From Escherichia coli (GTDB lineage: Bacteria > Pseudomonadota > Gammaproteobacteria > Enterobacterales > Enterobacteriaceae): a DNA stretch of 64,000 nt. Location of the stretch: the NCBI RefSeq assembly GCF_029227855.1, contig NZ_CP074357.1, one strand, 5' to 3'. Of the stretch, positions 47,401 to 50,400 are shown one piece after another. Made by a program: the position numbers. The number at the start of each line of letters is the position of its first letter. The first letter of the stretch is position 1.

Positions 47401-50400
47401 ACGATTGATTGGTCAAGCTGGAAAACTTATGCCGCCATGTTGATCTTGGGAGCATTTCTCTAAAATCTTGAACCTTTTTTCACTCATTACAAGCCATGAC
47501 CTAGTGCGTAGATCATACGATCTTTAAACCTTATGTCATTGATTTATAAGTACATATAACAAAGATTATGTTAAATACTGTATGTATGTACAGCATCAAC
47601 AGTTGCCCCCCTCATATTGAGGTAATTGCTACATTCATACCACTATTCTTCTTATAGTATCGACATCCTGAATTATTGCACCCTACTGCTTTGTCTTTAG
47701 CTGTTCCGAATTAAAATTCATTGCTCAATTTGGATCACATGACGATCAGCGTATTCCTTTGCTTTATCAAAGTTAAGTTTTTAAAACATAAGATATGTAA
47801 TGACAAATTCTCAATCTGATTTTCCTTTGAACGATCAAAATTTTCAGGCAGATTTGCTGAAAATCAAAAAGGTTTTCGCCGACCTTATAACGCAGGCATC
47901 AGATGGTAAGATACCCATAAGGTCTTCTCATGTACACGGCTTACACCATTTCGAGGAGCTCTACATCCGGGCAAGAGCAGGCATGTGTTCGGTCCTGGGA
48001 TATCCGGTCATGGTTGTTTCAACTATCTCAGTTAAAGAGCCCGGCACAGGCATTTTTAGAGCGCTTCTTGCAGAATTGAAATGTATTGCAGATGAACAAA
48101 ATTACATTTTGAAAATTGAAAATGTACTGCCTCCCCTATTCCGCAAATACCTTATTCAAGAAGGTTTTGTTTTCCCAGGTGAACCTTGGATGTGTGGTTC
48201 CGGCTATTGGTTTAAGAACCCACAAGTACTTCATGAAAATATTGAGTTATTATCTGTTTAAGTCGATCTAACAATTTCACTGGAGCTAACATGTCCCCGG
48301 AATTGGTATCAGACATTGCAAGAGTGGCGCATGAAAAGCTACTTTCAATTTTAACGGAGTGCGGCATAGAGAAGACGGCAGGCACTTGCCTTTTTGCAAG
48401 CTATCTTGTGTGTTATTTAGCAAAAACTAAAGGTCTAGATGCTGTTGTCCGTGGGGGTAACGGTGCAGATGATGGCGGTATATTTATAGAGTGTGGTGGC
48501 TTTGGCCATTATTGGTGTGAGTTGAATTTCGAAGAAGTGCAATATTATATTGACATCACTTCCGAACAGTTTGGGTTTCATCCATACATAGTGAAACTCG
48601 CCAACGATATAACAGGATGGCCTCGATATATTCCTGGTGATCAGGAAACGGTCGATAGTCATTTAGAACAATTATTACGCGACGGCTATACAGAATAGGC
48701 TGCGTATACCCTATCGCAGCCTTTCAGGCTCTTAACCCTTGTGACCTGTTAACGGAACCACTCAGGATGACGCTGCCGATCAACTTTGATAACCTGCGAA
48801 TTAAATTCAACGACATCCGCTGGAGTAAGCATTAATTCATCAGGATTTACAATAAATGGTCTTAAAACCACTTCGCCACCGTCTTCTTTTGCACCGTAGA
48901 TATTAATAAGAAAGTGCAGTCGTTGATTTCCTTCAGCATTGCGTTGCCATTCTCTAAAAGTCAAAGTTTGTTTAATATAGTTTGTTAAAAGAAATGCGAA
49001 TTCAGATTCTTCCGTTTGTGAGATACCGATTTTGTTAGACATTTTTTTTAGTATCTTTCCGAGCATGGACACACAGGCATCTAGACTTAACGATGTTGAA
49101 ATTTTGGTCGTATTAAAATCCTCCTGCGAAAGTGAAATCATCCATGTATTATCTTTATGATAGTCGGTAATATAAATAAAATGAGATGTAAAAGGCGTTG
49201 AGTGATTGAACTCTCCTAAGTTCCATCCATACTGACTCACTGTATTTGAGCTAAGTTCTTTGTCGGTAATGTTCATAATTCATACCTTTCGATAAAGTCT
49301 GTAATGATAATTAGCTATCTCAAAGGACCAGAACAACTCTTGAAATAACCACACTCGAAGAATTTATCATATTGAACACCCCTACCTAATAACCTTGCCG
49401 ACTTAATAAATCACAATAGCCCTCCCCTGACATTTTAAAATGCTACTTGAATTTTTGATAGCTTATGGTTGTTTTATGTTCTTTGTGATACGCATATGTC
49501 ATCTTCTCTTTCCAGTACCAATCTTGTAGATCCTGCAAGTCTAGCCCATTTTTCTCACGTATGCTTTCGTGTAATTCGCTAAGCGCGAGTTTATCATTAG
49601 GTTTATAAATGGCTAATTTTTCTTCAAATAAATCCAGCCAACGTTTCCCCATCTTACGACGCAAAACAAACACCATCGTGATAAATGTAATGAAATGCAC
49701 AGCAATTAGTTCCAACTTATGCGATTGCTGACCAGATAAAATTACTATTGTAACAACAGGGATGGCCGTATATAAAGCAATCAAAGCGACCATAAGTTGG
49801 TATGGTTTTTCCCGTATTACCATGTTCATGGGTAAACCAGAGGACGCTACTGCTTGCCAAAATCTTAAAGGGGAGCCCGCAGAATTCGGAAAAAATCGTA
49901 CGCTAAGGTTTTCCGGGCATCCGTAAGGGCCGAAACTTCCCGTCTTCCAGTCTGCGGCTCTGCCGCCAGACGTAATCGCCGGTTAGGTTGATGTGCTCCC
50001 AGCCCAGCGGCGACAGGAATTGCAGCAGCTCGCCGTCCACCGGCTTGCCGGCCTCGACCAACCCCTGGGTGGCGCGTTCCAGGTACACCGTGTTCCACAG
50101 CACGATAGCCGCCGTCACCAGGTTGAGGCCGCTGGCCCGGTAGCGCTGCTGCTCGAAGCTCCGATCCCTGATTTCCCCAAGGCGGTTGAAGAACACCGCC
50201 CTGGCCAGCGAGTTGCGCGCCTCACCTTTGTTCAGGCCGGCATGCACGCGGCGGCGCAGTTCAACACTTTGCAGCCAGTCCAGGATGAACAGCGTGCGCT
50301 CGATCCGGCCCAGCTCGCGCAGGGCCACGGCCAGTCCGTTCTGGCGCGGGTAGCTGCCGAGCTTGCGCAGCATCAGCGAGGCGGTGACGGTGCCCTGCTT

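Follow-up and report, generated by a model that had tools for sequence, protein, structure and literature searches.

The 64,000-nucleotide (nt) window analysed here, a stretch of contig NZ_CP074357.1 from the Escherichia coli assembly GCF_029227855.1, contains a near-consensus LexA (SOS) box that is fused to a dif-like Xer recombination site upstream of two small genes, ORF153 and ORF135 (open reading frames, ORFs, of 153 and 135 amino acids, aa). Over this region, about 650 large conjugative plasmids from Escherichia, Salmonella and their relatives match the window at 99-100% identity; among them is pSTM6-275, typed as IncHI2A, MOBH and MPF_F. LexA is present in the hosts of these plasmids; thus, a SOS box of the E. 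coli type is biologically meaningful in this setting. The box is contained in a 336-nt gap (47464-47799), the sole long gap in the plus-strand gene string, which runs from the 3' flank of a string of small ORFs through the Xer core and the LexA box into about 170 nt of unknown origin, and closes with about 30 nt of conserved DNA before ORF153. ORF153 (47800-48261, plus strand) has a GNAT-like fold and belongs to a small family of plasmids and virulent phages, and ORF135 (48291-48698, plus strand) has a small transglutaminase/papain-like Cys-His-Asp fold; the two are spaced by 29 nt, with a GGAG ribosome-binding site ahead of ORF135. A first-pass annotation of this DNA had placed a LexA box in the only long gap, upstream of two ORFs with recognisable motifs, and the gap, the ORFs and the motifs are all present as described. 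It overlooked the fusion of the box with the XerD arm of the dif-like site and its position exactly on a recombination junction.

The LexA box, TACTGTATGTATGTACAGCA (47576-47595), keeps the CTGT-N8-ACAG core with the AT-rich spacer of LexA operators of Beta- and Gammaproteobacteria, and it departs from the consensus TACTGTATATATATACAGTA at three positions (9, 13 and 19). No other site in the window has three or fewer mismatches to the consensus, and none arose in any of 100 dinucleotide-preserving shuffles; the CTGT-N8-ACAG core itself occurs three times in the window compared to an expectation of 0.54. The LexA matrix used for scoring was symmetrised from 23 classical E. coli boxes, and the bit values are approximate in absolute terms. 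On this scale, the box scores 23.4 bits, with the training sites at 12.5-24.6 bits and the top of 50 shuffles at 18.6 bits. Sequence, shuffles and matrix score are thus in agreement with the earlier description of a near-consensus box with three mismatches.

The other two CTGT-N8-ACAG sites of the window, both of them validated operators, score lower than this box. One (551-570; GACTGTTTTTTTGTACAGTC, the reverse complement of CTGTACAAAAAAACAG; 14.7 bits) belongs to the promoter (Pint) of the class 1 integron gene intI1 and is the LexA box reportedly described by Guerin et al. in 2009. It adjoins dfrA-like and arr-like cassettes, and intI1 is apparently truncated by IS26. The other (59984-60003; TACTGTGTTTACATACAGTC; 20.1 bits) belongs to the Prcr promoter of ISCR2 and precedes a truncated transposase ORF of this element by 18 nt, with a LysR fragment and floR adjacent. 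The published -10 element of ISCR2 Prcr, TAGACT, is present in the window and overlaps this box. LexA gel shifts and a reporter are described for the ISCR2 box, the mutation of which leads to 14.5-fold derepression (2026 paper, PMC13393415). Like the box under study, the Pint and Prcr boxes are CTGT-N8-ACAG sites located in mobile DNA on plasmids of Enterobacteriaceae.

The identical 20-mer is found in six unrelated proteobacterial genomes. In Pseudohongiella (L011 290-309), it is positioned 35 nt upstream of a gene of the SulA family (PF03846, above cut-off); in an Enterobacteriaceae prophage (L013 5342-5361), it occupies a tum-like position, with a P2/186-type replication gene A on one side and a 95-aa ORF on the other; and in Pseudomonas (L014 2679-2698), it precedes a DUF1654 gene. 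Given the operator score and the occurrence of the same 20-mer at SOS-type positions elsewhere, the site at 47576-47595 is very likely bound by LexA.

The first base of the LexA box is the last base of a XerD arm, and the CTGT of the box begins 2 nt past this arm. The dif-like Xer core (28 bp; 47549-47576, plus strand) consists of a XerC arm, AGTACATATAA (47549-47559), a CAAAGA spacer (47560-47565) and a XerD arm, TTATGTTAAAT (47566-47576), the last of which is identical to the XerD arm of dif at 11/11 positions. The pattern RGTRCRYATAA-N6-TTATGTTAAAT is matched once in the window and never in 100 shuffles, and the window holds exactly one dif-like site, as expected for a site of multimer resolution. 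The same 28-mer occurs in unrelated IncF, IncR and MOBF plasmids, where it is flanked by different DNA on each side. The pHCM1 copy is identical to the window core at 28/28 positions and is followed by CTT (3 bp) and then the end of a transposase of the ISNCY/IS1202 family; an IS1202-family element lies 3-5 bp off the XerC arm both in pHCM1 and in the R478-like IncHI2 lineage. According to PMC10132070 (Table 8), enterobacterial dif-like sites of this kind are targeted by IS1202-family elements. The core of L025 equals the ISSen13 entry for IncHI1 in the same table, that of the R478-like IncHI2 lineage (L003, at the same relative position) equals the core of the ISLad2 entries, and the ISKpn21 and ISKpn65 entries have the spacer and XerD arm in common with the window site. 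Judged by architecture and XerD arm, the window 28-mer is the IncHI2 counterpart of the published IncHI1 dif-like sites, and the Xer site is a conserved feature of the IncHI backbone. The conserved stretch on the left of the box had also been considered as a common promoter ahead of a transcribed region that varies; this idea was dropped, as the 28-mer has unrelated flanks and matches published dif-like sites.

The window site shares the 11-6-11 layout, the TTATGTTAAAT XerD arm and the CAAAGA spacer with IncHI and other enterobacterial dif-like sites (PMC10132070). Unlike the window site, none of the published or retrieved dif-like sites has a LexA box beside the XerD arm, and no description of a LexA operator fused to a XerD arm was found in the literature searched. 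The dif modules of Acinetobacter have paired inverted sites, whereas the window has a single site. The cer site of ColE1 has an 8-bp spacer with ArgR/PepA accessory sequences. It resembles the window site in having a regulatory element at a plasmid Xer site, where transcription is thought to be modulated by adjacent bound proteins; the element is an internal promoter, Pcer, that lies within the Xer site and is influenced by bound proteins (PMC4393325). By contrast to the window site, the regulators of cer are XerCD and FIS rather than LexA, and cer yields the Rcd RNA, of which no counterpart was found here with Rfam.

The window 28-mer is also noted in an Enterobacter ludwigii MOBF plasmid (L031 1200-2030), beside a GNAT/DUF1778 toxin-antitoxin pair and a phospholipase gene of a cyclic oligonucleotide-based antiphage signalling system (CBASS), and in IncR and IncF plasmids (L028 and L030). 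These contexts are in line with the dif module with a GNAT gene that PMC10132070 reports from an HI1B plasmid, and together they suggest that accessory modules bounded by Xer sites exist in Enterobacterales.

Comparison to related plasmids places a junction within the fusion of the two sites. The window is 99% identical to L004 over the upstream small ORFs and 94.7% identical over the first 113 nt of the gap, and this similarity ends at 47576, the first base of the LexA box. Similarity to L002, L005 and L007 resumes at about 47766-47772. Between these points is a lineage-specific segment of about 190 nt and of unknown origin (47577-47765, plus strand), which opens with the LexA box, forms most of the ORF153 leader and stands where relatives have about 2.5 kb of accessory DNA. 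No relatives of this segment were detected in plasmids, phages or E. coli genomes outside this IncHI2 lineage, and no convincing terminal inverted repeats were seen that would mark it as a miniature inverted-repeat transposable element or the remnant of an insertion sequence (IS). Rfam has no match over 46500-49500, the fold of the leader RNA is not unusual (z = -0.14), and neither strand of the block that adjoins the box shows a conserved RNA structure. The small ORFs in the gap (20-32 aa) were rejected as genes, as none is convincing; one crosses the right junction and, therefore, would be chimeric.

The Xer core itself differs between the window and L004 at 3/14 positions despite near-identical left flanks (99%), the outcome that would be expected from a crossover inside the core with a partner site of the CAAAGA type. 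The position of the box best fits DNA brought in via exchange at the Xer site, and the IncHI2 dif-like site is a boundary at which lineages exchange accessory DNA.

ORF153 and ORF135 are assigned at the level of the fold. Searches of ORF153, ORF135 and their neighbours against Pfam, NCBIfam, PHROGs and PADLOC returned nothing usable: ORF153 has no match in Pfam or NCBIfam, and ORF135 has no direct match to Pfam or a curated family. Thus, the GNAT-like and transglutaminase-like calls of the first-pass annotation hold for the fold, while the curated sequence models are not passed. ORF153 has a minimal GNAT-like fold. The GNAT matches of its relatives are all below threshold (best E = 4.6e-4), and its best PDB profile match is a GNAT protein (E = 0.023). 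The residues K79-E-P-G82-T-G84 are positioned as the acetyl-CoA pyrophosphate-binding motif (Q/R-x-x-G-x-G/A, strand 4-helix 3); across the family, G84 is nearly invariant, G82 and the basic residue are variable, and E107 is invariant. Family members with 24-34% identity are found in virulent phages of Serratia and Dickeya (BFVD K7YIN2, A0A384ZXL1 and UPI001E75D19C). The nearest known proteins are small GNAT acetyltransferases of mobile elements, including the anti-CRISPR AcrVA5 and the tRNA-acetylating toxins AtaT and TacT. A type II toxin-antitoxin system of the GNAT/ribbon-helix-helix (DUF1778) kind was considered for ORF153 and rejected: 336 nt of non-coding DNA lie upstream in the window, the gene found at this place in relatives encodes an unrelated protein of 151-165 aa, PADLOC gives no match, and the lack of an antitoxin-type partner leaves this reading unsupported.

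ORF135 has a transglutaminase/papain-like fold in which C33, H73 and D88 occur in order and are invariant across 39 sequences with 30-54% identity to ORF135. Sub-threshold matches among the 39 family members are to Transglut_core3 (8/39), Transglut_core (7) and Tox-PLDMTX (3). The ordered, invariant Cys-His-Asp residues and the fold are shared with transglutaminase-like cysteine proteinases and deamidases of bacteria (LapG/BTLCP, TglA, SseI, PMT C3 and protein glutaminase); unlike these enzymes, ORF135 is only 135 aa in length, is cytoplasmic by sequence and is without accessory domains. Families common to the accessory regions of plasmids and to lytic phages are often anti-defence or host-takeover genes. 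The phage and plasmid distribution suggests that the pair may combine an acyl-transferase with a thiol peptidase/deamidase and that it perhaps serves in anti-defence or in modification of the host.

The ORF153-ORF135 pair is also present in L002, L005, L006, L007, L008, L023 and L025, which represent other IncHI2 lineages and IncHI1-type plasmids, while the R478-like lineage (L003) keeps ORF135 without ORF153. The pairing is retained in IncHI1 and IncHI2 and not in the distant relatives of ORF135. In most relatives, a gene of 151-165 aa is located 81 nt upstream of the ORF153 homolog, where the window lineage instead has the 336-nt gap. This gene is of a 136-165-aa family (L002 3450-3947, L005 87-563, L006 245-721, L008 3866-4321 and L004 5660-6070) with the motifs ECDGHT, HLW and IDYRLRMW and no Pfam match. 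In L004, a member of the family replaces ORF135 beside the ORF153 homolog. BLASTP detects no similarity between ORF135 and the 151-165-aa proteins; MAFFT aligns the His and Asp residues of ORF135 and the 136-165-aa family, with a suggestive C/H/D pattern in common. The family may be a distant analog of ORF135.

On the left side of the locus, four small and mostly hydrophobic plus-strand ORFs (135, 84, 113 and 76 aa; 46164-47463) end just short of the Xer site. The ORFs of this string are separated by very short gaps, have no intrinsic terminator and are conserved at 99% in L004 and about 68% in L008. On the right side, ORF135 converges with a 175-aa ORF on the minus strand, and the DNA between them includes a hairpin that was read from the sequence as GGCTGCG-(10 nt)-CGCAGCC followed by TTTCAGG (48698-48728). 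This hairpin is a possible bidirectional terminator; it was missed by the terminator scan because its loop exceeds the 8-nt limit of the scan.

The reading proposed here, tentatively and with the chances judged somewhat below even, is that the operator now acts as a gate on transcription that runs rightward into the ORF153-ORF135 pair and places the pair under SOS control. According to this model, a high-affinity LexA operator would have entered the plasmid within about 190 bp of foreign DNA, whose first 20 bp it forms. This DNA would have been joined at the single dif-like site, probably through Xer-mediated exchange. The foreign DNA would have displaced the roughly 2.5 kb of accessory genes still carried by sister lineages and thereby left the operator 204 nt before a two-gene cassette. 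In undamaged Escherichia, Salmonella and Enterobacter hosts, LexA would most likely occupy the site and dampen rightward transcription into the cassette. The source of this transcription may be a weak promoter in the Xer core (TTTATA-18-TATGTT) or read-through from the unterminated operon upstream, and cleavage of LexA as stimulated by RecA would lead to higher expression of the pair. In favour of SOS control of the pair, the box is located in the sole long gap, on its coding-strand side, with ORF153 and ORF135 as the next genes. The weak, -10-like TATGTT in the XerD arm would start transcription inside the box, and Pcer of ColE1 cer is a precedent for a promoter within a plasmid Xer site (PMC4393325). 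The absence of an intrinsic terminator on the plus strand over 44400-47576 means that read-through from upstream could reach the box.

Several observations weigh against SOS control of the pair, and the first of these concern transcription. A consensus sigma-70 scan finds no plus-strand site near the box, and candidates on the plus strand of the gap reach only 5.3-6.5 bits with a sigma-70 matrix of our own, compared to a shuffled-null median of 8.2 bits; the earlier remark that no convincing -35/-10 pair lies beside the box was thus correct. The TTTATA-18-TATGTT pair, with its -10 in the XerD arm and a start at about 47579 inside the box, likewise does not exceed the shuffled null. The 204 nt that separate the end of the box from the ORF153 start codon are long for SOS genes; by contrast, the Pint and Prcr boxes overlap a -10 element directly upstream of the regulated gene. 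A LexA roadblock of read-through transcription is usually inefficient. In addition, no transcriptome or chromatin immunoprecipitation data for the locus were found in the literature on IncHI2 and pSTM6-275.

The natural variation of the locus points in the same direction. Other than unrelated 12-bit sites, no LexA site of at least 11 bits occurs upstream of the pair or of ORF135 homologs in L002-L010 and L017-L025, a set in which L017-L022 are the more distant loci with ORF135 homologs; the box is thus absent from the other lineages that carry the pair, and the regulation is not ancestral to the cassette. The lineage that has the box is monomorphic, with about 650 records 99-100% identical at the locus, such that no footprint of selection can be read. 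Furthermore, in plasmids of E. coli, Salmonella and Klebsiella michiganensis, ISKox3 (ISL3 family) splits the box at its exact centre with duplication of the 8-bp spacer (TACTGT-ATGTATGT-[IS]-ATGTATGT-ACAGCA), and ORF153 and ORF135 remain intact; L026 (pXH992_1; 576-600 and 1900-1920) is an example, and matches H5 and H6 are of the same type. By its position within the box, the ISKox3 insertion is a natural knock-out of the predicted operator. ORF153 is also found in truncated or frameshifted form on long plasmid contigs (P0004-P0007 and P0011), with lengths of 92-126 aa and one internally frameshifted variant of 152 aa, an indication that selection on ORF153 is relaxed in a portion of the population. 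Other records have IS1, IS903B, ISVsa5 or IS3 elsewhere within 47200-48900. With no promoter above the null, a 204-nt distance, a lineage-specific box and ISKox3-split boxes that persist, the control of the pair by DNA damage that the first-pass annotation considered is no more than plausible.

Many of the same observations would be accounted for if the operator were a relic of the junction, i.e., if it arrived with the foreign DNA and LexA may bind it with no regulatory consequence for the plasmid or its genes. This explanation has perhaps one chance in three and is nearly as likely as SOS control of the pair. It would account for the placement of the box exactly at the homology breakpoint, its restriction to one lineage, the want of a supported promoter, the tolerance of ISKox3-split boxes and the lack of any sign of selection in an undiverged lineage. 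It is less at ease with the rarity of a near-consensus site by chance, the intact state of the box in about 640 records from several genera, and the orientation of the box towards the sole downstream genes with no terminator in between. A chance origin of the box goes further, in that a C-(TGTA)x3-CAG tandem repeat in AT-rich DNA would mimic a SOS box and remain unbound in vivo. Three TGTA units do form the centre of the box, and the scanning of many windows will give occasional chance matches. However, no match with three or fewer mismatches was seen in the 100 shuffles, the score is above those of the intI1 and ISCR2 boxes, the flanking TA...CA is also of the consensus, and the identical 20-mer occupies SOS-type positions in other genomes; a chance palindrome is thus judged very improbable.

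The overlap of the two sites raises a further alternative, in which the target of LexA is the Xer site rather than the genes. A LexA dimer sitting 1 nt away from the XerD arm may hinder XerD binding or synapsis and render recombination (for multimer resolution or module capture), or a Pcer-like promoter, responsive to damage. The single base common to the box and the XerD arm and the start of CTGT 2 nt past the arm are suited to such a role, as is the status of the site as a conserved IncHI backbone feature and target of the IS1202 family, and Pcer offers a precedent for the coupling of transcription to Xer complexes (PMC4393325). Yet sister lineages carry the Xer site without the LexA box, which indicates that Xer function does not require the box, and the repression of multimer resolution in healthy cells seems harmful. 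We also know of no precedent for a Xer site gated by the SOS response, and this alternative is considered unlikely. A combined version, in which LexA would block access to the XerD arm, to a Pcer-like promoter or to both such that damage both licenses Xer recombination and switches on the GNAT/thiol-enzyme pair, for example in an anti-defence or host-modifying role, is viewed as a little less probable again. Transcription to the left is a last alternative: TGTACA within the box as a -35 and CATAAT (47570-47565) as a -10 would drive a SOS-induced antisense RNA across the Xer site, in the manner of a type I toxin-antitoxin system. The consensus scan gives 9/12 for this pair and 10/12 for a better one, ATGACA-16-TATGAT, further left, and the upstream ORFs encode small hydrophobic proteins. 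With matrix scores of 5.7 and 9.7 bits, both pairs are inside the shuffled null (median 8.2, 90th percentile 10.5), and no conserved RNA structure on either strand, Rfam match or terminator accompanies them, which leaves a leftward promoter with only a slim chance.

The IncHI2 lineage that carries this locus is a major carrier of multidrug resistance in Escherichia and Salmonella, with the exact locus in about 650 records, and the analysis places the IncHI2 dif-like site on the map. If the operator works in SOS control of the pair, antibiotics that induce the SOS response (e.g., quinolones) would switch on two uncharacterised enzyme-like genes, in addition to the integron integrase and the ISCR2 transposase as functions of this plasmid already known to be under SOS control. 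With a LexA operator joined directly to a XerD arm, the locus also offers a simple system for asking whether DNA-damage signalling modulates Xer recombination. Should the coupling of LexA to both Xer recombination and the gene pair prove true, a globally spread lineage of resistance plasmids would carry a SOS-gated Xer module.

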